64,000 nucleotides of DNA from Paludibacteraceae bacterium (GCA_045576595.1 JAZNGV010000031.1:13903-77902); one strand, 5' to 3'. Numbered from the stretch's first letter, positions 4,436 to 38,755 are shown. Notes: generated by a model not told the origin, from the sequence alone. Numbers and translations: made by a program.

Positions 4436-5605
4436 ATGCAAAAACTAACTATCCAAAGAACAAATGGTAATGTCCCTCGTGCACTTGCGGGAGAGGATCA
4501 CATTTCGGCTTTGTTGTTTTATCACAACACTCTGCCTGATGGATTTACCACAAATGACCGAATTAAAGCTGTATCAAGTATTGAAACGGCAGAAGGGTTA
4601 GGAATCACAGCAGATTCATCTGATTGGGGAATCCGTGTGTTGCATTACCAATTGACCGAGATTTTTAATCTCAATCCTGCGATTAGTCTGTATGTAGGAA
4701 TTTATTCCCCCGCCTCAGAAACAAGTACCTTTGCAGAAATTAAGAAGATACAGAACTTTGCAGGTGGTAGAATCCGCCAAATAGGCGTATGGAATGGTTC
4801 TGTAGCCATGACCACTACAGATCTTAATAGCTTGCAAAGCATTCGTACAACTCTTGAGCAGCAAAACATGCCATTGTCAATTTGCTATGCTCCAAAAGTG
4901 GGCGATGTTACCCAACTTGCGCAGGACATTGCAGGATCAAACCGCAACGGCGTTTCTGTGATTATCGGACAGGATGGTGCAGGAACAGCAGCAACACTCT
5001 ATGCTGATGAAAGTAATACAAGTAAAGCTTCTGTTACTGCTATTGGTGAGTGGATTGGTATTTGCTCTGCAGCTTCTGTACATGAGAGTATAGCATGGGT
5101 GGAGAAATTCCCAACTAAAATAGCATTGCCAGCTTTTGCTGATGGTACATTGTTACGCGATTTAGATTCGGCTATTATTGAAACGCTTGATACTGCGCGT
5201 TATTTGTTTTTCGTAACTTATGACGGCATTGCAGGTGCATATTTCAATGATTCACACACGATGGATTCTGCAACGAGCGACTATGCGTATATTGAGAATG
5301 TACGCACAATGGACAAAGCTGTGCGTGGTGTCCGCACCTACACATTACCAAAACTTGGTCGCCCTCTCAAAGTAGATGCTACTACAGGTAAATTAGAGAC
5401 CTATGTTGTAGAGGATTTGCAACTCACTGCAAACCGTGCTCTTGAAGCAATGGAGAAAGCGGGAGAGTTGAGCGGGTATTCCGTAGAGATTGATCCTGAT
5501 CAAAATGTGCTTGCCACATCAACCGTGGAAATGGTAATTAAGAATGTCGCTGTCGGAGTTATGCGTCAGTTGAAAATCAAAATTGGCTTTGCACAAAGTG
5601 TATAA
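4436..5605 (+). CDS. Tail sheath protein (probable)
   Basis: 389-aa ORF directly upstream of a ~150-aa tube-like ORF, a chaperone and the tape measure. This is the canonical myovirus order. Confidence 0.6.
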   Translation: MQKLTIQRTNGNVPRALAGEDHISALLFYHNTLPDGFTTNDRIKAVSSIETAEGLGITADSSDWGIRVLHYQLTEIFNLNPAISLYVGIYSPASETSTFAEIKKIQNFAGGRIRQIGVWNGSVAMTTTDLNSLQSIRTTLEQQNMPLSICYAPKVGDVTQLAQDIAGSNRNGVSVIIGQDGAGTAATLYADESNTSKASVTAIGEWIGICSAASVHESIAWVEKFPTKIALPAFADGTLLRDLDSAIIETLDTARYLFFVTYDGIAGAYFNDSHTMDSATSDYAYIENVRTMDKAVRGVRTYTLPKLGRPLKVDATTGKLETYVVEDLQLTANRALEAMEKAGELSGYSVEIDPDQNVLATSTVEMVIKNVAVGVMRQLKIKIGFAQSV

Positions 5606-11436: not shown

Positions 11437-11708
11437 TTGGACTTACAGTTGATACAGCTACAGGCGATTTGTTAGTAGAAAACGGTAGCCTTGTACTTTC
11501 GGAAATATCTTCGCAAGTCATTGAGCATGTTGTTCGCGCCAATCGCGGAGAATATCGAACTCAACCATTGGTAGGTGCCGAGGTTATTAAATTACAGCAT
11601 GGTTCTACCTCGCGTTTGTGGTGTGCGCGTGCAAAGAAGATGTGTCAAGCCGCAGGTGTAGAGGTAAAGCATGTAAGTGTAAACGGCAATAATATCAAAG
11701 TTGAATAA
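11433..11708 (+). CDS. Small baseplate-module protein (gpW/gp25 position)
   Basis: 91-aa ORF with overlapping start and stop codons with its neighbours. Confidence 0.4.
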   Translation: MIGLTVDTATGDLLVENGSLVLSEISSQVIEHVVRANRGEYRTQPLVGAEVIKLQHGSTSRLWCARAKKMCQAAGVEVKHVSVNGNNIKVE

Positions 11709-12067
11709 TGAAAGTTTTTGTACAAGATAGACAATGTATCGCCGATATTGCCTTGCAAGTTTGTGGATCGTTAGAGGCGGCATTAGTAATAGCAGAACGC
11801 AATGGTTTGTCTATTACGGATGATTTAGTTGTAGGGCAAGTGTTAGATTATGATCTTACAGATGTATTAAACAAGCAGGTGGTTAGCGTTTATAAGGTGG
11901 ATGGCGTAATTCCAGCAAGCATGGTGCATGATACGCTTACAGAGGAATTGAAAACCGTTATAGGAGAAGATACAGGTATGGAAGATATACAAGGTGTCGC
12001 AGATCCTACCAAGACACCAATATTTACAAATGTATTTACAAAGCAGTTTAACATTCAATTTGCATAA
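11708..12067 (+). CDS. LysM-like tail protein X (gpX-like)
   Basis: N-terminus VFVQDRQCIADIALQVCGSLEAALVIAERNGLSITDDLVVGQVLDY fits the LysM-type fold of P2 gpX-like proteins. Confidence 0.5.
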   Translation: MKVFVQDRQCIADIALQVCGSLEAALVIAERNGLSITDDLVVGQVLDYDLTDVLNKQVVSVYKVDGVIPASMVHDTLTEELKTVIGEDTGMEDIQGVADPTKTPIFTNVFTKQFNIQFA

Positions 12068-12069
12068 AA

Positions 12070-13215
12070 ATGAAAAACGAATTTAACACAGAGGAACTTC
12101 GCAATACAGCGGAGGAGATTCAAAATGCTGTAATGGCAAAAAGTATTACCCCCGAAATGGTCGGTGGCACATTGTTAGCGTTAGTTAATGCACAAGGCGA
12201 GGTAATCGAATCCTTTGGCAACTTTCAGCGCGAACGCGTAACGGTTAAGGTAAACGCTTACGATGGCAGTCAGCGTGCAGATGTGACAGGCGCAAAGGTT
12301 TATTTAGACATGTTCTCCGCAGGAACGCCAATTGTTAATGTGCCTCGTCAAGAGTTAGAGGTGGATGAAAATGGAGAGGTGTCATTTGAAGTTATACATG
12401 GATATCATTATTCTGTAGTGTCAAAGTTGGATGGCTTTGGAGCTTCGTTCCAACTTACATTTCAAGCTTCCCAAGAAAGTCGTATCATTGCATTATGGAA
12501 TTTGCCATTAGGTGTGTTCTATTTAGGTGCTGCTGGTTATTGGAGAGAAACAAATGAGGAGACAGGCGATGGTGTTTATCGCTACATTCCATACATAACA
12601 GAGGAATATATTAATGATTGGGATATGCGCAGAGAATATGCCGAATGGGGATTGACTGATGAAGAAACTTGGGACGATGATTATTATGGTTGGTTTATCC
12701 TTATATCTACAGAAAAAGGATCGTTTATGATAGACAGCGATTCTTATTCAGAAGACTATAAGACATGGACTTCAAATCGCTTCTATGGGAAAAATATCCC
12801 AACCATGCATGCATATGATTATGAAAATAGAGATTGGGAAATAGCTCAAGAGGAAGCTCGACAGGATATGGATGGCAATTTGAATACGGCAAAGCTACTT
12901 GCGTTCTGTGGATCAGAAGCCCCTGCAGCTGCATGGTGCGCAAATAGTCAGACCGATTATAGGATTAATCGTTGGCTTCCATCATGTGGCGAACTATATC
13001 TAATGTTCCTTAATGGATCAGTGATTGATTCGTTGATGGAACCTGCAATAGAGGATGGATATAACCTGCGTAAGATTCTTGATGATTATAACTGGCATTG
13101 GTCAAGTACTGAATGTAACGCGCGGTGTGCGTGGGGCGTGAGTATCGGCAACGGAGTCGCGGCAGCCGTAGGATTACCGCAACTATGTGCGTGCGGTGTC
13201 GGCTTTTCTCTTTGA
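12070..13215 (+). CDS. DGR variable (target) protein, DUF1566/C-type-lectin-fold-like C-terminus carrying the VR; probable receptor-binding tail protein
   Basis: C-terminus WLPSCGELYLMF...NWHWSSTECNARCAWGVSIGNG... The last ~30 codons are the VR. As read, the C-terminal 16 aa are out of frame relative to the TR-encoded motif. Confidence 0.8.
   Translation: MKNEFNTEELRNTAEEIQNAVMAKSITPEMVGGTLLALVNAQGEVIESFGNFQRERVTVKVNAYDGSQRADVTGAKVYLDMFSAGTPIVNVPRQELEVDENGEVSFEVIHGYHYSVVSKLDGFGASFQLTFQASQESRIIALWNLPLGVFYLGAAGYWRETNEETGDGVYRYIPYITEEYINDWDMRREYAEWGLTDEETWDDDYYGWFILISTEKGSFMIDSDSYSEDYKTWTSNRFYGKNIPTMHAYDYENRDWEIAQEEARQDMDGNLNTAKLLAFCGSEAPAAAWCANSQTDYRINRWLPSCGELYLMFLNGSVIDSLMEPAIEDGYNLRKILDDYNWHWSSTECNARCAWGVSIGNGVAAAVGLPQLCACGVGFSL
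13118..13215 (+). repeat. DGR variable repeat (VR) with IMH-like GC-rich 3' end
   Basis: Aligns to 13798-13900. 16 differences fall at TR adenines. The closing 20-mer ctatgtgcgtgcggtgtcgg (13183-13202) is identical. VR is 5 nt shorter than TR. Confidence 0.9.
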
Positions 13216-13235
13216 TTCTTAACCCTTTATCCTTT

Positions 13236-13262
13236 GCGCTTCGCTTTTTAGGAGCGAAGCGC
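13236..13262 (+). terminator. Perfect 10-bp hairpin + T-tract downstream of VR (terminator and/or DGR homing hairpin)
   Basis: gcgcttcgct-ttttagg-agcgaagcgc followed by ataaatttttttt, 21 nt after the VR/stop codon. Confidence 0.7.
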
Positions 13263-13307
13263 ATAAATTTTTTTTGAAAAATCTTTGATTATCCAACAAA
13301 AAAGCAG

Positions 13308-13315
13308 TACCTTTG
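13308..13315 (+). promoter_or_regulatory. Bacteroidetes -7 promoter box TAccTTTG for avd-TR-RT
   Basis: aaaaaagcagTAccTTTGcactcgaattATG. It shares its A-rich upstream context with other promoters in the window. Confidence 0.6.
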
Positions 13316-13325
13316 CACTCGAATT

Positions 13326-13691
13326 ATGGCAGCAAACACAGCAAAAGCATATAAGGATATGTATCAGATTATACAAATGATGTGTAGTCTGTCGGATAGT
13401 GTACCTGTAAAATGGCGACGTTGGTTGTGGGAAAAAGCACTTGATACAGCGAGTGATCTCATTGCGCTTATTGTGTATGCCTACGATGAGAAAAGCCTAC
13501 AAACAAAACTTGCATACATAGACAAGTGCCTTACCAAATTTACAGTACTTAATACTTATTTGCGATTGAGCAATGAGAATGCCATAATACCTACTCAAAA
13601 ATTTGTGAATATATCGGAACTAATGGCTGATATTTCCCAACAGTTAGCTGCGTGGCGCAAAGGCACGGCTGAGAGACTAAAAGGTGTGTAA
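13326..13691 (+). CDS. avd: Accessory variability determinant (Avd, four-helix-bundle protein)
   Basis: 121-aa helical, basic ORF (KWRRWLWEKALDTASDLIALIVYAYDE...AAWRKGTAERLKG) located between the target gene and the TR. Confidence 0.75.
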   Translation: MAANTAKAYKDMYQIIQMMCSLSDSVPVKWRRWLWEKALDTASDLIALIVYAYDEKSLQTKLAYIDKCLTKFTVLNTYLRLSNENAIIPTQKFVNISELMADISQQLAAWRKGTAERLKGV

Positions 13692-13797
13692 ACGAGTGTC
13701 CCAACGGTTACGGCTTTTGGGAGTGAGTAATTTTCTTAATGAAAAGGTCTGCGTACTCTCATTTAGAGTTAAGAGCAAGTTAATCGCAGAAGAAAAT

Positions 13798-13900
13798 GCG
13801 CGTGGTGTGCGTGGAACGTGAATATCAACAACGGAAACACGAACAACAACAATAGGAATAACAACAACTATGTGCGTGCGGTGTCGGAATTTCATTTGAA
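13798..13900 (+). repeat. DGR template repeat (TR)
   Basis: AAC/AAT-rich: it would encode CAWNVNINNGNTNNNNRNNNNYVRAVSEF. Non-coding position between avd and RT. It is the invariant partner of VR 13118-13215. Confidence 0.9.
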
Positions 13901-13901
13901 A

Positions 13902-15542
13902 ATGGAAAACATACAGGGAAATATCGCCATTACTTACGATAGCCTCGAAATAGCATATCGTGATTGCCGCAGAAATAAATCAGGTTCTGCAAATGCTATT
14001 GCGTATGAGATGTTCTATGAGGCTAATCTACTCCGTTTGCGTGATGAGATAAACGCACGCACATATACTCCCCAAGAATCCATTGCCTTTATTGTAAACA
14101 AGCCTGTGCAGCGCGAGATATTTGCTGCTAATTTTCGTGACCGTGTCGTTCATCATTGGATCGCTTTGCGCATTGAGCCGTTATTGGAGCGGGTTTTTAT
14201 AGATGAAAGCTTTAATTGTCGCAAGGGGAAAGGTACACTTGCTGGCATACTGTATTTGCGTGACGCTATTCGACAAAAGTCGGAGAACTATACGCGCGAT
14301 TGTTGGGTGCTTAAATACGATTTGAAAGGCTTTTTTATGTCAATTAACCGTGAGCGCGTCACAGATAAGTTGTGTCGGTTTATTGATGAGCGTTACAAAG
14401 GAAATGATAAAGATACGCTCATTTTTCTATGTCGCCAAATACTACTTAATGCCCCCGAAAAGAATTGCAAAATTAAGGGAACAAAGTCCGAATGGGTTGG
14501 TTTGTCAGCGGATAAAAGTTTGTTTACTGTGCCTGATGGATTTGGATTGCCAATTGGGAACCTGACATCGCAACTCGTAGCAAATTTCTTGCTGAATGAC
14601 GCGGATCACTATTGCAAGGAGGTGTTAGGTTTGGATATAGATCGCTATGTAGATGATACCTCAACTCCCGACACGGAAAAAGAGAAACTATTGGCTGCTA
14701 TGCCTCTTGTTCGACAATATCTTTTGGAAAGCGCAGGTGCTATTATACATCCGCATAAATTTTATTTACAACATTATACTAAAGGGGTTAAGTTTATTGG
14801 CTGTGTAATAAAAAAGGATAGATTATATCTTGCTAATCGCACTGTTGGTAATGCGTATAAACGCCTGCATAAGTTCAACGAATTAGCAGCTAATAATCCG
14901 CTGTTTGTGCGAAAACATGCCGAGTATTTTGTTAGTTGTATAAACTCCTATCTTGGTTTGATGAAGCATTGTAACGCGTATGGTTTGCGTCGTGATTTCA
15001 TTGCAGCTATAGGGAGTGAGTGGCATAAAGTTATAACTGTTGATCCTGATTATACTAAACTTATCGTAAAACCAAAATTCAAACATAGAGAGCGCATTCG
15101 TTATGTGCTCCGCCGTCAAAGGCATAAAATATCAATAACCAAAATTCAAAACAAACAAATGACAGCACGAGATTTTAGTACGGTTGATAAAGCCGTCGCC
15201 GTTGAGCAACTCAACATCAATCGCAAAAAGGGTTGTGTCGTGAGATGGGATTTCGAGCCTGTTAAGAACAAAATTCCTCTTAAACCTACAAACAAACCGA
15301 AACGGAGCAAGGGTAAGCCTGTGCCTAAAACCGACCAAGTACAAGTAGAGGGTCAAGACTACAAAGAAACAGTATCAAAGTTTGTTTCTTTCTCTGTTAA
15401 GTCTTATCCAATACTCCCAACAGCCGATGAGGTGATCGCGGATATTGAGGCGGATTTGACTGCACGCTATTCCGAAGATAATCGTCCTGCGATTGATCTT
15501 AATGCGTACCGCGAAGCTATTAACAAATTGCACACCTCTTAA
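13902..15542 (+). CDS. DGR reverse transcriptase with ~140-aa basic C-terminal extension
   Basis: PIGNLTSQLVANFLLN (DGR-type SQ motif) and IDRYVDD catalytic box. ATG 13902 is preferred because the track start 13818 lies inside the TR. Confidence 0.85.
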   Translation: MENIQGNIAITYDSLEIAYRDCRRNKSGSANAIAYEMFYEANLLRLRDEINARTYTPQESIAFIVNKPVQREIFAANFRDRVVHHWIALRIEPLLERVFIDESFNCRKGKGTLAGILYLRDAIRQKSENYTRDCWVLKYDLKGFFMSINRERVTDKLCRFIDERYKGNDKDTLIFLCRQILLNAPEKNCKIKGTKSEWVGLSADKSLFTVPDGFGLPIGNLTSQLVANFLLNDADHYCKEVLGLDIDRYVDDTSTPDTEKEKLLAAMPLVRQYLLESAGAIIHPHKFYLQHYTKGVKFIGCVIKKDRLYLANRTVGNAYKRLHKFNELAANNPLFVRKHAEYFVSCINSYLGLMKHCNAYGLRRDFIAAIGSEWHKVITVDPDYTKLIVKPKFKHRERIRYVLRRQRHKISITKIQNKQMTARDFSTVDKAVAVEQLNINRKKGCVVRWDFEPVKNKIPLKPTNKPKRSKGKPVPKTDQVQVEGQDYKETVSKFVSFSVKSYPILPTADEVIADIEADLTARYSEDNRPAIDLNAYREAINKLHTS

Positions 15543-15554
15543 ACGACAGACACA

Positions 15555-16532
15555 ATGGCACGTTCATTAAATGAGATAAAGGCGGAAATAGCCACCGCCT
15601 TTATCTCCCAAGAAGTGGTGCGTAATGCGTATGGTTTGGATGATAATGCTACTTTCGATAAGGTGTTTTCGCCTGTTAGTATTGAGAGTATTCTTTTCGA
15701 TGTCGTTGCTTCTTGTATATGGGTGGTTGAAAGCCTGTTTGATCGCCATAAGTTAGAGGTAGAAACAAGAATAGAAGCATTGCGTCCGCATACACTGCGT
15801 TGGTATGTTTCCAAGACGCTTGAGTATATGCACGGAAAAAGTCTAAAGCCTGTTTCAAAAGATGGAGTTGTGATCGCTGACTATTACGACACGAAAGATA
15901 TGCCCGAGAGTGAGATAGAAAAGAAACGTATCGTAAAATATGCAGTAGCAACGGAAAGTAATACGCATGTTCTGATAAAAGCTGCTGGCTCAAATGACGG
16001 TCGTCCCAAAAAACTCAATACAGAACAACTGAATGGTTTGAGTTGGTATCTTTCGCAGATTAAAGACGCAGGTGTTAATCTTCGGGTAATCAGTGAGGAC
16101 GCTGATCAGATGAATGTTGAGTTGTATGTTCGGTATGATCCAACCGTTTTGCAAGCAGAGCTCTTAACGGATAAAGAGAATGAATATCTCGCTACCGAGA
16201 ACACATTCTATACAAATGCCGATCGTGCGTCAGGGTATCACTTAATCCGTTTAAGCCCTATTGATGATGTACAAACAGACATTTTGGATAATGTTGTATG
16301 TGATGTCATTACCCACTTGCCTTTTAATGGAGAGTATAGGAACTCCGATTTGCTTGCTGCTATACAATCTATAAATGGCATAGAGGTGGCAGATATATGT
16401 AAGGTAGAAGTTTGCGCTGCAAGTGCAACAGGCGTATATACACCTGTCATCGGATATCGCCGTCCTTATAGTGGTTATTATGAATTAACAAACCTTGTTG
16501 TTAAGGGTAAACCTTACATTACAGCCGAATGA
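15555..16532 (+). CDS. Baseplate J-like protein (Mu gp47 position)
   Basis: 325-aa ORF following the baseplate genes. The N-terminus MARSLNEIKAEIATAFISQEVVRNAYGL resembles baseplate J family starts. Confidence 0.5.
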   Translation: MARSLNEIKAEIATAFISQEVVRNAYGLDDNATFDKVFSPVSIESILFDVVASCIWVVESLFDRHKLEVETRIEALRPHTLRWYVSKTLEYMHGKSLKPVSKDGVVIADYYDTKDMPESEIEKKRIVKYAVATESNTHVLIKAAGSNDGRPKKLNTEQLNGLSWYLSQIKDAGVNLRVISEDADQMNVELYVRYDPTVLQAELLTDKENEYLATENTFYTNADRASGYHLIRLSPIDDVQTDILDNVVCDVITHLPFNGEYRNSDLLAAIQSINGIEVADICKVEVCAASATGVYTPVIGYRRPYSGYYELTNLVVKGKPYITAE

Positions 16533-17078: not shown

Positions 17079-18371
17079 ATGAATAAAGCGCAATATTTAT
17101 CTACCGCTCCCGAACTGGGAGGAAACGGACGCTATCCTTTATCCACACAGGGACTTAATTTCGTGCAGTCGCAAATTGAATTGCTGCAAGAGCTTTCAAG
17201 AATCGGCGGAAAACGCTACATCCTTAAACAGCCCACTGATGGAGATGGATTGGTGGTTATTGATAACGAAATTATGCCATTATATGGTGCCATTCCTGAC
17301 AAAAGCGGTGGCATTAAAGTGTATCAAGAAACACAGGATATACAAGCTGACGGTGAAACTTATGTTGGAGCCCGCATTATACGATATGCACGATATCAGA
17401 CCGCTTACAGAAAAGGAGAAGATGGTTTATACCCAGTCAATGGGTTTGCTGTCATTCAGACAAATGCAGAACTGAACAGGCGCATTGACGAAATAGAGGG
17501 AGCAATGGGCGAAGTTTCCAATCGTCTTGAAATTCGTTCGGGTATATTTACTGCCGTTCAAATCAATAACCTTTTCGATAATGTTCGATTACAATGCCGT
17601 AAGGGTTCTGTAAAACTCAATGGCGCAGAAACATATAGTCTAAATGTATATCGCACAGGCAGTACTGCAGGCAATGGTGTTATTGAAAGCGTTACACAAG
17701 AGCAAATCTTGCCTGATTTGCGCCGCTTTACACGGCAGTATTCTCCTGATAGCAAAAAATGGAGCAAATGGACATACTGTACAGACAATTTTCATATAGA
17801 TGTCAAGGTTGTGGACGGCAATACAGTTTGGGTAAGGCATGGAGAGGTTCCTGTTGGTGTACAACTTGTGTTGTTGCGTAAGAAAAAACGTAGTAAATGG
17901 AGACGGTCATCAGGAAGTGAGGGCGGACAAGCGCGTCGCCAAGGTAAAAACCAATATGTACATCATAAAGGTATTGTACTTTCGCTGGGAGAACCTAATA
18001 AATGGTATGTGCCTAAATGTTTACAGGTGGATGATGATATACATAATTCGCTTATTGGTAAAGAACTTGGTACTATATGTAGAAGCTTTTTGAAAACAAT
18101 TTCTATTGGTGGCTATGAGGGATATCAGATTAAGGGAACAAGTATTTGTATCGTAGATCCCGTTCAATTAGGAATATTAAACCGCCGAGGTAGTACTGTG
18201 AATGCCGAGAATTGCAAATCAGCTGCTTATGTAAAAATAGCACTACAATTTGCGGCTGCAGGACAATCTTATAAAGGAGCTGGCGGTGAAATGGTGCAAA
18301 TGAAATATCGTATTTGGAACCAAAAGAATGGAGCTAATTATACAAAACGTCATACATTCTCTGTGGAATAA
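17079..18371 (+). CDS. Tail fibre-like protein
   Basis: 430-aa ORF after the baseplate genes. ATG 17079 (MNKAQYLSTAPELGG) is chosen because the track start 16965 overlaps the preceding gene. Confidence 0.45.
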   Translation: MNKAQYLSTAPELGGNGRYPLSTQGLNFVQSQIELLQELSRIGGKRYILKQPTDGDGLVVIDNEIMPLYGAIPDKSGGIKVYQETQDIQADGETYVGARIIRYARYQTAYRKGEDGLYPVNGFAVIQTNAELNRRIDEIEGAMGEVSNRLEIRSGIFTAVQINNLFDNVRLQCRKGSVKLNGAETYSLNVYRTGSTAGNGVIESVTQEQILPDLRRFTRQYSPDSKKWSKWTYCTDNFHIDVKVVDGNTVWVRHGEVPVGVQLVLLRKKKRSKWRRSSGSEGGQARRQGKNQYVHHKGIVLSLGEPNKWYVPKCLQVDDDIHNSLIGKELGTICRSFLKTISIGGYEGYQIKGTSICIVDPVQLGILNRRGSTVNAENCKSAAYVKIALQFAAAGQSYKGAGGEMVQMKYRIWNQKNGANYTKRHTFSVE

Positions 18372-18624: not shown

Positions 18625-18741
18625 ACTGCTTTTTTGTGAGATATACAAATTTTTTACTAAAAAAATGAAGAAAAATTGCTAAAATACTGCACTTTGTCGG
18701 TTAAGGGTATAAAAAAGCCCCGCCGACTTCGTTAGAAAGTC

Positions 18742-18856
18742 CTCTTACCTACATTTCTAACAACAAACGCGAACAACCGCGAAGCCGTGGGGCGAAAGCC
18801 TTATAACTTCGGTTGTTCGTGTTTTTTATGCCTATACGAGGCTATGTAGGTAAGAG
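18742..18856. other. Nested hairpin element upstream of the Mom-like gene (candidate structured RNA / bidirectional terminator)
   Basis: Outer 13-bp perfect stem 18742-18754/18844-18856. Inner 13-bp stem 18767-18779/18810-18822 plus 3 more bp. Apical ggggc-GAAA-gcctt hairpin. T6 on plus and TTTGTTGTT on minus after the inner stem. Confidence 0.5.
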
Positions 18857-18926: not shown

Positions 18927-19775
18927 ATGTCAAGCAAAACAAATGAATCTGTGCAGATTTTCAAAGAATCTACTGCACTTGGTAGGCTTCTAATTAAGCC
19001 TGTAAGCAAAGCCGTTGCTCGCGAGATGATCATTGCAAATCACTACTCGCACAAATGGAACGATGGTGGCTTTGGAGTGTTTAATTTCGGGATATTCCAT
19101 GCTGATGAACCCGACCGTTGTCTTGGAGTGGCTGTCTATGGTTACATGAAGAACCCACGCGCAAAGACCTTTACGCACCCTAATCCTAAAGCGTGGGTGT
19201 GTGAACTTAATCGCATGTGGATAGATGATGAACTTGGACGCAATGCCGAGAGTATTTTAATAGCAGCGTCTATTAAGTTATTACGCCGCCTTGACCCTAA
19301 TTGTGTTGCTGTGCAAAGTTTCGCAGACGGTCGCCTTGGTTGCGGAACAATCTACAAAGCTTCAAACTTTCGGTATTTTGGTTTCCATCATACCATTTTC
19401 CTGCGCAATAAACGATCAGGCGAAATTATCCATCAACAGATATGCACTAATACAACCTCAAAGGCTGCTTATATTCGCGCAAATGTTGCGTATTTGATTG
19501 GCGATTTCGATGTACTTATTGTCAAAACATATCGTTATATTTATCCGCTATGCAAGCATTTTCGTTCTGTATTTAAGGAGCAACCTTATCCCGCATACGA
19601 TAAAGGATATGTCGCAGGCGAGTGGAAGCGTGATAAAGAAACAATCAGACAGCGTTGCGTTAAAATGCTTGCAGAATTAGATTTATCTGTTTATGAGAAA
19701 CCTGTAAAGCGTGTAGGTTCTTCAAAAGCCAAGAATCCAGCAAATAATGCAGAGAACTCTAAAGTAGCAGCTTAA
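18927..19775 (+). CDS. Mom-like GNAT-fold DNA-modification protein (adenine methylcarbamoylation family) - tentative
   Basis: ANHYSHKW...LGVAVYG...CELNRMW...QSFADGRLGCGTIYKASNFRYFG...YRYIYPL resembles my recollection of the Mu Mom-family pattern. It is the last gene of the prophage, as mom is in Mu. Confidence 0.45.
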   Translation: MSSKTNESVQIFKESTALGRLLIKPVSKAVAREMIIANHYSHKWNDGGFGVFNFGIFHADEPDRCLGVAVYGYMKNPRAKTFTHPNPKAWVCELNRMWIDDELGRNAESILIAASIKLLRRLDPNCVAVQSFADGRLGCGTIYKASNFRYFGFHHTIFLRNKRSGEIIHQQICTNTTSKAAYIRANVAYLIGDFDVLIVKTYRYIYPLCKHFRSVFKEQPYPAYDKGYVAGEWKRDKETIRQRCVKMLAELDLSVYEKPVKRVGSSKAKNPANNAENSKVAA

Positions 19776-19786
19776 TAGAACAAAGA

Positions 19787-19816
19787 AACCTCTCAACTTT
19801 TTGCGGTTGAGAGGTT
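19787..19816. terminator. Bidirectional intrinsic terminator
   Basis: aacctctcaac-tttttgcg-gttgagaggtt: 11-bp perfect stem flanked by A-run and T-run. Confidence 0.8.
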
Positions 19817-19963
19817 TTTATATGTTGGTTAAACAGCAATCAAATAGTGGTTAAACTTGCTTTATGATTCTCCACGAACAAATAAATATGACAAACCAGT
19901 CGTTGAAATAACGAGCATTTTTCTTATACACACCGCATGAAAAAGGGTGTAATTTTCACACTA

Positions 19964-19971
19964 CAAAGGTA
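19964..19971 (-). promoter_or_regulatory. -7 box TAccTTTG (minus strand), orphan transcription unit 3
   Basis: Reverse complement reads aaaaaaaagtagTAccTTTGtagtg. It points at terminator 19787-19816, and the ~150-nt unit has no ORF above 18 codons. Confidence 0.45.
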
Positions 19972-20414
19972 CTACTTTTTTTTGAAATATGCAAATTTTT
20001 AGGCAAAAAAATGCAAAAAAAAACACTATTTTTCACACCCTAAAAAACAGGGCAAAGATTGAAAAGAAAATGCAAGAAAATTACGAAAAATTGTACATTT
20101 CGTTTGGAAATGTTGTACAAATGGTTTTGCCGATTATATTAGCATATTCTTGGTATTATACTATTGCCATGCTTGAAGAAGTTTCCTTTACATAGCAAGT
20201 GCTAGATAAAAAAATCATTTTAATCAAATAATTTTCTACTAATAATTCTCATAGAATAAAAAGTACTAATCAAATTATGTAAACTAAATAGTAACTCTTC
20301 ATATACTCACAATAGTCTTAGTAGTGTTTTATCGTGTATAGTGAATATTTTGAAATTCACCACTCACTTTTAGCACAATCTTCGGCATGCGAAAACTTTT
20401 TTCAAAAAAATTAC

Positions 20415-20422
20415 TACCTTTG
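20415..20422 (+). promoter_or_regulatory. -7 box TAccTTTG, orphan plus-strand promoter upstream of the purD promoter
   Basis: aaaaaaattacTAccTTTGcagag, followed by ~150 nt without a long ORF (GCGG-ATAA-CCGC hairpin at 20434-20445). Confidence 0.4.
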
Positions 20423-20578
20423 CAGAGTAAAAATGCGGATAACCGCAGAAATACGCCACAAAGTATGAAAATCGAGCGGAAAGGACACCTGCAAGGATTT
20501 TTGCGCAACTGATTTGACAAAATAAAATTCCTTGCTAAACTTTCTAAGTTTTCACTTGCATATATGCAAAAAAATCAC

Positions 20579-20586
20579 TACCTTTG
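20579..20586 (+). promoter_or_regulatory. purD promoter (-7 TAccTTTG with upstream TTGCATATATGCAA palindrome)
   Basis: cacTTGCATATATGCAAaaaaatcacTAccTTTGcacccgaaatt, 44 nt upstream of the purD ATG. Confidence 0.6.
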
Positions 20587-20629
20587 CACCCGAAATTAGA
20601 ATGGTGGTTTTAGAACTCTTCTGAAATTT

Positions 20630-21895
20630 ATGAAAAAAGTATTAGTCGTAGGTGGCGGTGGACGAGAGCATGCTATCGTGCATGCGCTCTCGTGTAGCGT
20701 GAAAGTGGAGAAAATATACTGCGCACCAGGTAATGCAGGTATAGCACAACTCGCAGAGTGCGTGGCTATCAAAGATACCGATGTGGAGGGGTTGCTTCTC
20801 TTCGCCAAAGAGACAGAAGTGGACCTAACCGTTGTAGGACCAGAAGCAGCACTCGCCGCAGGCGTGGTGGACGCTTTCCGTGCCGAAGGAATGCCTATCT
20901 TCGGGCACACCAAAGCAGCTACACAGATTGAGTCCAGCAAGGAGTTTGCGAAAATCATCATGCAGAAATACCATGTGCCTACTGCTGCCTATCAGTCCTT
21001 CAGCGATTATGAAGAGGCATTAGCATATGTGCAGGCAGGACGATTGCCTATTGTGCTCAAATACGATGGACTAGCGGCTGGCAAAGGAGTGGTGATAGCC
21101 AATACCCTTGAAGAAGCAGACACTGCCCTGCAAGATATGCTATGCAATGAAGCATTTGGCAAAGGAAAAGTGGTGGTGGAGGAATACCTCGAGGGACCTG
21201 AGTTCTCTTTCATGTGTTTTGTGAACGGAGAGAAGGTTTATCCAATGCCTCTCTCGCAAGACCATAAGCGCGCATACGACAACGATGAAGGACCGAACAC
21301 AGGCGGTATGGGCGCCTATACACCGCTGCCTTTCGTGACCGAAGAAGACGAAGCGTTTGCAAAGAAGTATATCCTTGAGGCAGTAGCCAAAGGCATGTGT
21401 GCCGAAGGATTACCACTCACAGGTGTGCTCTATGGTGGACTGATGAAGACAGCACAAGGTATCAAAGTGATTGAGTTCAATGCACGCTTTGGTGACCCGG
21501 AAACCGAAGTCGTTCTTCCGCTCCTTGAGTCTGATGCCTACGATGTATTCTACGGCATTGCAACAAACACACTCCCCTACAAGAAAGAGCAGGGTGGAGG
21601 CTTGTCATGGCGTAACGAAGCCACAATAGGCGTGGTACTTGCATCCAAAGGTTATCCGGGAGATTATACCAAAGGTGCGGTGATTGAAGGCACAGAGGTC
21701 TTTGATGGTCCTATCTTCCATATGGGTACGCAGAACGAGAACGGGGTGCTGAAAACCAATGGCGGACGCGTAATGATGTGCATTGCTACAGGCAAAGATA
21801 TTAGTGCCGCACGCGAGAAAGTATATAACGAAATGGAGAAAATCCAATGCTCAAACCTCTTCTACCGCAAAGATATCGCCCACTGGGCGCTTTAA
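20630..21895 (+). CDS. purD: Phosphoribosylamine--glycine ligase
   Basis: MKKVLVVGGGGREHAIVHAL..., ATP-grasp core and VIEFNARFGDPETEV motif; 421 aa. Confidence 0.93.
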   Translation: MKKVLVVGGGGREHAIVHALSCSVKVEKIYCAPGNAGIAQLAECVAIKDTDVEGLLLFAKETEVDLTVVGPEAALAAGVVDAFRAEGMPIFGHTKAATQIESSKEFAKIIMQKYHVPTAAYQSFSDYEEALAYVQAGRLPIVLKYDGLAAGKGVVIANTLEEADTALQDMLCNEAFGKGKVVVEEYLEGPEFSFMCFVNGEKVYPMPLSQDHKRAYDNDEGPNTGGMGAYTPLPFVTEEDEAFAKKYILEAVAKGMCAEGLPLTGVLYGGLMKTAQGIKVIEFNARFGDPETEVVLPLLESDAYDVFYGIATNTLPYKKEQGGGLSWRNEATIGVVLASKGYPGDYTKGAVIEGTEVFDGPIFHMGTQNENGVLKTNGGRVMMCIATGKDISAAREKVYNEMEKIQCSNLFYRKDIAHWAL

Positions 21896-34292: not shown

Positions 34293-34682
34293 GGGGCTAT
34301 CTGGTTTTGACAGCAGGTAGATTGGATATGTAAGCACGCCGAGCTTTGAGGATATGCTCGTAAATATCATTCTTAAGCTATAACTGGCAACAATACTGTA
34401 GCTCTCGCTGCTTGATCGAAGTATAGTAGATCGCATTATTCGGGTACAAGGTGCCTGAACGGGACGTCGCTCCAAGCCGAGTTCGCGGGCTGATAGGACT
34501 AAGCGGCGCGGAAATACGCGAAATAGAATTCGTAGGCTGCGATGCGGATTTGAAACCTTAGCAGATAAGCCGATAGTTGGTGGCTTGGGTCTTGCTATCG
34601 GACGAAAATGAAGGCCAAGATAAGCGTGTAGAAAGCATATACGGTCCTTGTTTGGACGCGGGTTCGACTCCCGCTAGCTCCA
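34293..34682 (+). ncRNA. ssrA: tmRNA (SsrA), tag reading frame GNNTVALAA*
   Basis: 5' ggggctatctggttttgacagc pairs with 3' tagctcca. The T arm is gcgggttcgactcccgc. The tag ORF ggc aac aat act gta gct ctc gct gct tga lies at 34386-34415. A conserved aagataagcgtgtagaaagc block is present. Confidence 0.9.
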
Positions 34683-34718
34683 CTCGCGAATTAAAATTCG
34701 TCGGGGACCCCAAAGGGA

Positions 34719-37095: not shown

Positions 37096-37169
37096 GGCCC
37101 CGTAGCTCAACTGAATAGAGTGTCAGATTCCGGTTCTGAAGGTTCTGGGTTTGAACCCCAGCGGGGTCA
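37096..37169 (+). tRNA. tRNA-Arg (anticodon CCG)
   Basis: Acceptor GGCCCCG/CGGGGTC, anticodon arm TCAGA-TTCCGGT-TCTGA, T arm CTGGG-TTTGAAC-CCCAG. Confidence 0.85.
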
Positions 37170-37172
37170 CAG

Positions 37173-38680: not shown

Positions 38681-38755
<75 letters not shown>

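Follow-up and report, generated by a model that had tools for sequence, protein, structure and literature searches.

The region examined here, positions 12070 to 15542 of a 64,000-nucleotide (nt) stretch of DNA from a Paludibacteraceae bacterium (JAZNGV010000031.1; we call the whole stretch the window, and all coordinates refer to it unless a contig is named), carries a diversity-generating retroelement (DGR). Its parts stand in the canonical order: a target gene that ends in a variable region (VR), the accessory gene avd, a template region (TR) and a reverse transcriptase (RT) gene. With high confidence, we regard it as a genuine DGR lying in the tail genes of a Mu-like, contractile-tailed prophage of gut Bacteroidales; that confidence applies to the explanation as a whole, meaning the identity of the element, the working model for its operation and our reading of the copy in the window. 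A preliminary description of this DNA had proposed the same target–avd–TR–RT layout, and hidden Markov model (HMM) searches, the affinity of the RT to that of phage BPP-1 (bRT) and a population-level VR diversity restricted to adenines all back it. The cassette had also been called complete, which in functional terms it is not, because the VR allele in the window is out of frame. The features, with protein lengths in amino acids (aa), are as follows:

12070–13215, plus strand: DGR target gene, 381-aa allele; an open reading frame (ORF) with the VR at its C-terminus
13119–13202, plus strand: VR core, 84 nt, defined by alignment to the TR
13183–13215, plus strand: initiation of mutagenic homing site (IMH), a GC-rich 20-mer identical to the TR copy and then CTTTTCTCTTTGA
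13235–13263, plus strand: GC-rich hairpin and T run, a candidate DGR cruciform/hairpin and/or target-gene terminator
13285–13318, plus strand: putative Bacteroidetes-type promoter-like elements, TTTG ... TACCTTTG, just 5′ of avd
13326–13691, plus strand: avd, accessory variability determinant, 121 aa, matched in Pfam, PHROG and NCBIfam
13799–13887, plus strand: TR core, 89 nt, defined by alignment to the VR
13868–13899, plus strand: IMH*, the GC-rich 20-mer and then AATTTCATTTGA, ending 2 nt before the RT start codon
13902–15158, plus strand: DGR RT proper, ~419 aa, with RVT_1, PHROG 1423, IGNLTSQ and YVDD
15159–15542, plus strand: conserved 127-aa module fused to the RT, a separate gene in relatives

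The RT is recognized by Pfam RVT_1 (E = 6e-15) and by the reverse transcriptase family PHROG 1423 (E = 4.9e-82), and its translation carries both IGNLTSQ and YVDD, as had been read from the sequence earlier. Its best match in the PDB is chain 8ub7_A (E = 1.5e-20), which is BPP-1 brt and 100% identical to AY029185.2; the best retron-type match reaches 1.6e-8 and the best group II RT chain 2e-7. The preliminary description had named clustering with group II intron or retron RTs as the outcome that would speak against a DGR, and the RT instead sides with bRT. Judged by these motifs and best matches, it belongs to the DGR clade. The tblastn matches of the RT among phages include Bordetella phage records as well as Bacteroides phages, and among cultured phages its nearest relatives are the DGR RTs of Bacteroides phages F2, F4 and Bacuni_F1, with 48–50% identity over residues 10–398. 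The 121-aa ORF 5′ of the TR had been called Avd-like, and three HMM libraries agree: Pfam bAvd (E = 2.2e-9, 38.2 bits against a cutoff of 40), PHROG 3206, "Avd protein of DGR" (E = 1.2e-11), and NCBIfam DivGenRetAVD (E = 7.4e-6, below its cutoff).

The TR is open in the VR reading frame and runs without a stop codon into the RT (13818–13901), so ORF finders start the RT at a GTG within the TR. In our mechanical ORF list the RT begins at GTG 13818 (574 aa), and gene calls on related contigs begin at the equivalent of 13872 (556 aa); the true start is likely the ATG at 13902.

The frame that ends at 15542 had been taken as an RT throughout. It does encode an RT with both motifs, but the same frame also holds a separate conserved gene: sequence comparison indicates that the 546-aa "RT" ORF is an RT with a conserved 127-aa gene fused to it in frame. 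The module starts at a conserved Met (MT[AV]R..; Met420 in the window, at 15159). In three relatives from metagenome-assembled genomes (MAGs) of Alistipes/Rikenellaceae (L017–L019), an in-frame stop follows RT residue 415 and a separate ORF comes after it, and in contigs L030–L033 a 417-aa RT and a separate downstream gene of 130 or 131 aa are called; the fused state is found in the window and in Muribaculaceae/Bacteroides-type relatives. Throughout this phage family, the DGR RT is followed by a conserved gene of 127–131 aa. Neither Pfam nor PHROG has a match for the module, and a full HMMER scan with the 127-aa tail against 1.84 billion representative proteins gave 12 hits, ten of them stand-alone proteins of 90–139 aa and one a 552-aa protein aligned over its last 126 residues, like the fused ORF of the window. 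The 127-aa protein could be an undescribed DGR accessory factor, or it could be a small baseplate protein. A related DGR in an Alistipes MAG (L025:6933-7974, JAVBNV010000012.1), whose RT is 56% identical and 401 aa long, is without the module, and its single TR seems to be preceded by two VR copies.

Adenine-restricted differences between the template and variable regions

The TR at 13799–13887 and the VR at 13119–13202 were recovered as a pair by both local alignment and a repeat search. As noted earlier, both copies end with an identical GC-rich 20-mer and diverge after it. This 20-mer, CTATGTGCGTGCGGTGTCGG, has exactly two copies in the 64 kb (at 13183 and 13868; 0 expected) in a search that allowed 3 mismatches, and it is followed by CTTTTCTCTTTGA in the VR and by AATTTCATTTGA in the TR. 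After GTGTCGG, the difference between CT in the VR and AA in the TR is fixed in every relative, including those whose RTs are 55–79% identical. An IMH at the VR 3′ end and a non-identical IMH* at the TR 3′ end are the arrangement expected of a DGR.

Within the repeat, the alignment of the window's own TR and VR contains 15 substitutions, all at TR adenines. The lone difference elsewhere, TR T13803 versus VR C13123 (Trp to Arg), falls just outside the repeat as the preliminary description had drawn it, on the upstream side. With adenine at 31 of the 89 nt, chance would place at least 15 out of 16 substitutions at A with P = 1.5e-6. The earlier count had been 16 substitutions, all at adenines; we compute 15, and the restriction to adenines stands inside the repeat. 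Nor do the mismatches scatter across the four bases, 15 of 16 being at a TR adenine and the one non-A difference adjoining. What had been missed is that the two copies are unequal in length and that two deletions separate them; the intervals given earlier, 82 nt for the TR and 77 nt for the VR, cannot differ by substitutions alone. By dynamic-programming alignment, the window VR (84 nt) is 5 nt shorter than the TR (89 nt), having lost 4 nt in the AACAACAACAAT run (after ~13161) and 1 nt in the next AAT (after ~13172), and all five missing bases can be placed on TR adenines. Equal TR and VR lengths with the VR in frame, the usual state of a DGR, are thus not found in the window copy.

The TR is well laid out for diversification by changes at adenine. 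Thirty of its 31 adenines are in codon position 1 or 2, each of its 13 AAY codons can reach 15 amino acids, and an A-to-N change never yields a stop codon. Its frame encodes AWCAWNVNINNGNTNNNNRNNNNYVRAVSEF; up to 17 codons can be rewritten, for a theoretical VR repertoire of 3.7e17 peptides. No second VR was found in the window, whether by the IMH with up to 3 mismatches or by the 3′ half of the TR with A treated as N.

The population around this copy gives a far larger series of alleles. Exact-protein look-ups with the window Avd and the 91-aa tail protein yielded 18 distinct metagenome contigs of the same phage, ten of which, from the Avd look-up, are 96.8–98.9% identical to the window over ~12 kb. 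The TR is identical to that of the window in 17 of the 18, the exception (L040) differing by a single C>T. Seventeen contigs supplied 15 distinct VR alleles that are all 89 nt long and in frame; these differ from the TR at 238 places, 233 of them TR adenines, with 10–20 changes per allele, and each of the 31 TR adenines varies in at least one allele. Together with the 15 of 16 substitutions in the window, this is the near-repeat with differences at template adenines that characterizes DGRs. Two pairs of contigs share identical VRs, each pair made up of one Logan and one ENA contig, which shows that assemblies of the locus can agree. In six more distant relatives from IMG/VR (RT 55–79% identical), mismatches are likewise almost only at A, and the TR/VR core has no indel. 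Pattern scans of JGI metagenomes and IMG/VR added no further VR alleles; it was the ENA/Logan protein index alone that led to the phage species.

The 5-nt-short allele of the window is unique among the sampled copies of the phage. Another unusual VR is that of contig L044 (ENA ERZ1767644 NODE_86), where the VR is duplicated in tandem at positions 4660–4880 and 1 nt is missing from an A run; the deletion brings the frame back to the native stop and gives a 410-aa target. The junction of the duplication lies between an IMH-like GTGCGTGCGGTGT and a TR-5′-like GCGTGG, and the duplicated VR looks like an aberrant retrohoming product. With these two, 2 of 17 distinct alleles are non-canonical. Some VRs (in L013/L039 and L043) have T where their own TR has C, at TR position 66 (window 13865), a position at which the TR of L040 itself has T; this hints at a past TR polymorphism or at recombination between phages.

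The out-of-frame target allele and its five missing nucleotides

Intact alleles of the target are 385 or 386 aa long and stop at a TAA at 13220–13222, and the window allele has 381 aa. With 5 nt gone from the VR, the 381-aa ORF is out of frame over its last 19 codons: the window target departs from the TR frame after GNG and reads ARCAWGVSIGNGVAAAVGLPQLCACGVGFSL up to its stop, and the usual ending YVRAVSAFLFDS, with the stop at 13220–13222, is absent. Most of the 131 target homologues end in ...YVRAVSAF(L/H)F.., and in an alignment of 65 of them V375, R376, A377, V378, S379, A380, F381 and F383 are at least 90% conserved. Residues 378–381 form a strand in the AlphaFold2 (AF2) model of an intact relative, P0002. 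With the conserved YVRAVSAF strand lost, the C-terminal domain of the window allele is predicted to be non-functional. The exact window target protein is a singleton, known from one NCBI contig (86,678 bp). In a related phage, in which the homologue of the downstream 325-aa protein is 63% identical, the target is called as 353 aa in two contigs (L031/L032:2572-3633) and as 386 aa in a third (L033:2473-3633) with a shared 3′ end, which suggests a difference in start site or a 5′ frameshift.

How did the five bases go missing? We lean, without great firmness, towards slippage of the RT on AAC repeats in a past retrohoming event. Length differences between TR and VR are a documented minority state of DGRs (PMC5758913), reported in 25 of 372 elements, 11 of them with a frame shift, and 74% of the indels adjoin AAC (Wu et al. 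2018, PMC5758913). As the other 15 alleles are in frame, the frameshift is clearly an event in this allele and not a property of the element. The TR, the IMH, the upstream homology, avd and the RT are all intact, so further retrohoming would restore the frame.

The explanation that competes most seriously with slippage, and to which we give real if lesser weight, accepts the DGR and makes the 5-nt deficit an artefact of assembly or consensus calling from mixed VR alleles (for example, in a long-read consensus), the true VRs being 89 nt long. In keeping with this, the host's nearest named relatives are MAGs and the window protein comes as a singleton from one NCBI contig; the deletion is present in no other copy, the 15 other alleles being 89 nt and in frame and the duplication in L044 being in frame as well; and hypervariability of the VR within a sample might disturb consensus calling. 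However, the bases are missing only at adenines in AAY repeats, as RT slippage predicts, and a 4-nt deletion is atypical of sequencing error. Short-read assembly would be expected to resolve a bubble by picking one path, without introducing indels, and the VR has no long internal repeat. Assembly of the locus can also be reproducible, as judged from the two Logan/ENA contig pairs with identical VRs, and the L044 duplication with its frame-restoring deletion looks like selection on real DNA. Slippage stays our preferred account of the deficit. A more elaborate version, in which out-of-frame alleles created by AAC slippage are a reversible OFF state of a tail adhesin, reset at the next retrohoming, so that the DGR would also act as a phase-variation switch, strikes us as improbable.

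The diversified protein and the surrounding prophage

For the structure of the target we relied on P0002, which is intact and 96% identical to the window protein and whose AF2 model has a predicted local distance difference test score (pLDDT) of 89. The model shows N-terminal helices of low confidence, beta-sandwich domains (~54–221) and, at the C-terminus, an alpha/beta domain with the VR at its end. In a Foldseek search of BFVD with this model, phage tail fibre proteins came first (E = 1.4e-16), and several phage proteins described as "DUF1566 domain-containing" followed with a target-normalised TM-score of 0.55. Lcl_C (PF07603, formerly DUF1566) matches P0002 weakly (E = 0.0047, 17.6 bits, family cutoff 34.9), many of the target homologues have precomputed PF07603 matches, and the target family profile matches the Lcl_C-type structure 8q4e (E = 0.002) over the last 40 residues, across the VR. 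Taken together, these matches point to the "category d / CLec2" class of DUF1566 targets in Wu et al. 2018 (PMC5758913). The DUF1566-type C-terminus of the preliminary description thus has weak or precomputed matches in relatives, but none in the window protein itself. Among the 50 best matches listed in a PDB Foldseek search with the full model, most were pilins, Ig-like or beta-sandwich proteins; there was no Mtd or TvpA among them, and they gave no CLec assignment.

The tail-fibre-like fold matches make tropism switching, the role proposed earlier, a reasonable inference, with the target perhaps attached to the baseplate. There is a smaller chance, though not a trivial one, that the diversified protein does not bind the host receptor and is instead an accessory adhesin for glycans or mucus, or a protein of benefit to the lysogen, with no tropism switch. 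A separate 429-aa ORF (17082–18371) occupies the expected tail-fibre place, after the genes for the 325-aa and 178-aa proteins; the solved Lcl_C-type relative is from a paper on Legionella Lcl, described as a glycosaminoglycan-binding adhesin; and the out-of-frame allele is tolerated in this lysogen. Set against these points are the top structural matches, which are phage tail fibre proteins, the position of the gene, which is at the same place within the baseplate module in all relatives, and the precedent of BPP-1, which is one of tropism switching (PMC5758913). A receptor-binding protein remains the reading that we prefer.

The surroundings are those of a phage tail. Upstream of the cassette are genes for a prohead protease, major head protein, sheath, tube, tape measure and DUF6046/baseplate hub, along with small ORFs and a second baseplate hub (PHROG 4930, 1.1e-79); the sheath, tube, tape measure and two baseplate-hub PHROGs agree with the earlier placement of the DGR in a tail/baseplate module. 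Downstream come ORFs of 325, 178 and 429 aa, a Mom-like gene and then the host gene purD (20630–21895). The names that had been given to the two flanking genes found no support in profile searches: the "LysM gpX-like" ORF at 11708–12067 (119 aa) has no Pfam match at E ≤ 10 and no PHROG match, and the "baseplate-J-like" ORF at 15555–16532 (325 aa) has no Pfam match at E ≤ 10 and no NCBIfam or PDB-profile match, its one hit being PHROG 38413, of unknown function. For the 325-aa protein, there was also no Pfam match in 30 homologues and no precomputed one among the 120 best-listed homologues, and its family profile drew a blank in the PDB. Both labels come from gene order only. That order, hub-200-68-91-119-target-avd-RT-130-325-178-429-Mom, is kept in relatives with a 63% identical homologue of the 325-aa protein, and its conservation in such diverged relatives implies that the DGR is an old, fixed part of the baseplate module rather than a recent insertion.

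The Mom-like gene (18927–19775; PHROG 1384, 2.7e-42), with sheath and tube genes in the same window, marks the phage as a Mu-like myovirus, and in relatives that extend leftward Portal_Mu and Phage_Mu_F are annotated, with a weak Phage_Mu_Gp36 and a faint Mu-like_Pro_N match. Positions 1–1700 of the window are 99.4% identical to, and collinear with, relatives that continue to the left, which indicates that the prophage runs off the left window edge and is not truncated there. At the other end it adjoins purD of a Bacteroidales host, the PurD protein being 96% identical to that of a Paludibacteraceae MAG. At the nucleotide level, the cassette matched none of 50,697 phage records (the INPHARED set) by megablast, and exact-protein look-ups gave no record for the 119-aa protein or the major capsid protein. 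The phage family is common in ENA and Logan assemblies, where the tail-tube protein occurs in 242 index blocks.

Several smaller features accompany the prophage. A tRNA-Met (CAT) at 500–572, just 5′ of the prohead protease and inside the 99.4% identical stretch, appears to be phage-borne. The Mom-like gene is the last phage ORF, and ~850 nt of AT-rich, ORF-poor DNA (19776–20629) separate it from purD; before it, at 18731–18836, is a weak match to Rfam Yfr10, a cyanobacterial sRNA (37.4 bits against a gathering threshold of 43, E = 0.009), which is probably due to chance. The host DNA includes a tmRNA at 34293–34683 (tag GNNTVALAA), a tRNA-Arg (CCG) at 37096–37170 and a second tRNA-Met at 38681–38755.

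With this context, the frameshift could also be read as ordinary decay: the target gene would be degenerating in a prophage whose DGR is no longer under selection, and both the frameshift and the non-A change at 13123 would be common mutations. We find this unlikely. One T>C change does lie at a non-adenine, the frame is lost, and a prophage tail gene is unselected during lysogeny. However, Avd is identical to that of contigs with diversified VRs, the TR is identical in 17 of 18, and the RT ORF is uninterrupted and equal in length to that of these contigs. Elsewhere in the 12-kb tail region, identity is 96.8–98.9%, with few gaps and with ORF lengths as in relatives, the left end of the window is collinear with complete relatives, and both indels fall on adenines inside the 89-nt stretch that the RT rewrites. 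Truncation of the prophage, considered as a cause of decay, was rejected, as the relatives with which positions 1–1700 align continue left into packaging genes. Finally, the suggestion that there is no DGR here at all, and that the repeats are a chance or recombinational duplication beside a retron or group II intron RT, could appeal to NCBIfam, in which the RT has no DGR-RT match and its best hit is a group II RT model far below the cutoff, but it is effectively refuted by the population VR alleles and the RT match to bRT, given differences restricted to A (P ~1e-6 in the window and ~1e-71 for the first ten relatives), the presence of an Avd gene, an RT that is closer to bRT than to any retron-type or group II RT chain and has the [ILV]GxxxSQ motif, and the lack of any Rfam intron or retron RNA.

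Signals around the cassette, comparison with known DGRs and a working model

The hairpin at 13235–13263, 33 nt past the IMH core, has a perfect GC-rich stem of 12–13 bp and is followed by a T run; other lineages have a GC-rich hairpin of unrelated sequence at the same position. It fits a DGR inverted repeat and/or a terminator. In the DGR of Legionella pneumophila, a hairpin after the IMH is important for homing (PMC5758913). In each of the nine relatives examined, exactly one TAnnTTTG lies between the VR/hairpin and the avd position; its counterpart in the window is TACCTTTG, at 13311–13318. TAnnTTTG is the Bacteroidetes −7 promoter box. A TACCTTTGCA box is also found before the host purD (~20580) and at a third site at ~20417. 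From the conserved promoter-like box 5′ of avd, we infer that avd, TR and RT are probably transcribed from a promoter of their own and not only within the late operon.

Signs of RNA structure are sparse. A search of Rfam at E ≤ 1 over 11–21 kb returned nothing at the DGR. RNAalifold, applied to 11 TR regions, gave one stem only, which joins the TR 5′ end to IMH*; it has a single compensatory pair, and coding constraint is a confounding factor. The stem pairs 13799–13815 (GGTGTGCGTGG) with 13870–13882 (columns 33–48 and 96–111 of alignment A3) and leaves the A-rich mutagenic stretch looped. The similarity of the TR 5′ end to IMH* may explain the junction of the L044 duplication.

Among known systems, BPP-1 (mtd-avd-TR-brt) is the obvious reference. 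The two elements have in common the gene order with a C-terminal VR in the target, an IMH and IMH* that begin GC-rich, an inverted repeat 3′ of the VR, an AAY-rich TR and a tail-associated target, and bRT is the best solved-structure match of the RT described here. They differ in that identity between the RTs is low (phmmer to 8ub7_A, E = 1.5e-20), in that the target here is of the DUF1566/Lcl_C type (the CLec2 class of Wu et al.) and not Mtd, and in that the hairpin here has a 12-bp stem ~33 nt past the IMH core. The phage here is a Mu-like myovirus of Bacteroidales. Furthermore, no spacer separates TR and RT, with IMH* ending 2 nt before the RT start, and any Sp-like priming RNA would therefore have to lie within the RT coding sequence.

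Bacteroides uniformis phages F1 (Bacuni_F1), F2 and F4 have the closest cultured RTs and are likewise gut phages of Bacteroidales (Hedzet et al. 2021, PMC8143477); DUF1566 is mentioned in the paper that describes them. They are siphoviruses, however, without nucleotide-level similarity to our element, and the RT match ends at about residue 398 and leaves the 127-aa module unmatched. The L. pneumophila DGR (LdtA; category "d"/CLec2, PMC5758913) also has its VR in a C-terminal domain of the DUF1566 type, but LdtA is a chromosomal/ICE-borne (integrative and conjugative element) lipoprotein, whereas the target here belongs to a phage tail module and has N-terminal helices and beta-sandwich domains. 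With the non-canonical DGRs of Wu et al. 2018 (Fig. 4C–E, PMC5758913) the window copy shares indels that adjoin AAC repeats and a frameshift; unlike them, it has an in-frame state documented in 15 distinct alleles from other samples.

In our working model, avd, TR and RT would be transcribed, probably from their own Bacteroidetes-type promoter 3′ of the hairpin, and an RT–Avd complex would copy the TR RNA, misincorporating opposite the 31 template adenines, as in the BPP-1 paradigm (PMC5758913). The cDNA would then take the place of the VR, from the IMH to the upstream homology, rewriting up to 17 codons (~4e17 peptides) for the DUF1566/Lcl_C-type domain at the C-terminus of a tail-fibre-like protein of 385 aa; binding by the virion would probably change. 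Past slippage on the AAC repeats would have given the −5 nt VR of the window, and a new round of retrohoming would overwrite the defect.

A number of observations weigh against parts of this explanation. The evidence for activity is the between-sample diversity of sister copies, which leaves the activity of the window copy itself less certain. The 5-nt deficit, known from an assembled consensus, could be an artefact of consensus or assembly. The Pfam and NCBIfam scores of Avd are just under the curated cutoffs, yet all three libraries agree. The DUF1566 assignment leans on weak matches to relatives, the window target protein having no Pfam match even at E ≤ 10. When the C-terminal domain was modelled on its own, AF2 gave a poor prediction (pLDDT 61, falling below 50 in the VR), so that it was left out of the fold search; in these predictions the domain evidently needs the preceding beta-sandwich. 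A receptor-binding role for the target is put forward on indirect grounds. RNA from the 3′ end of avd through the TR to the 5′ end of RT folds no better than shuffled sequences (z = −0.22).

For annotation, three points follow. The 381-aa target should be recognized as a frameshifted allele, the 546-aa "RT" as an RT plus a fused small gene, and the "gpX" and "gpJ" labels should not be propagated. This is a known type of system that would not surprise a DGR specialist, and it leaves the understanding of DGRs unchanged. The population series is unusually clean, with a near-invariant TR, 15 canonical alleles and every template adenine used, and the out-of-frame and duplicated-VR alleles show natural cases of failed or aberrant retrohoming that the element could still repair. 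The element is a DGR from an uncultured family of Mu-like myoviruses of gut Bacteroidales, and it adds to the known DGRs of phages.

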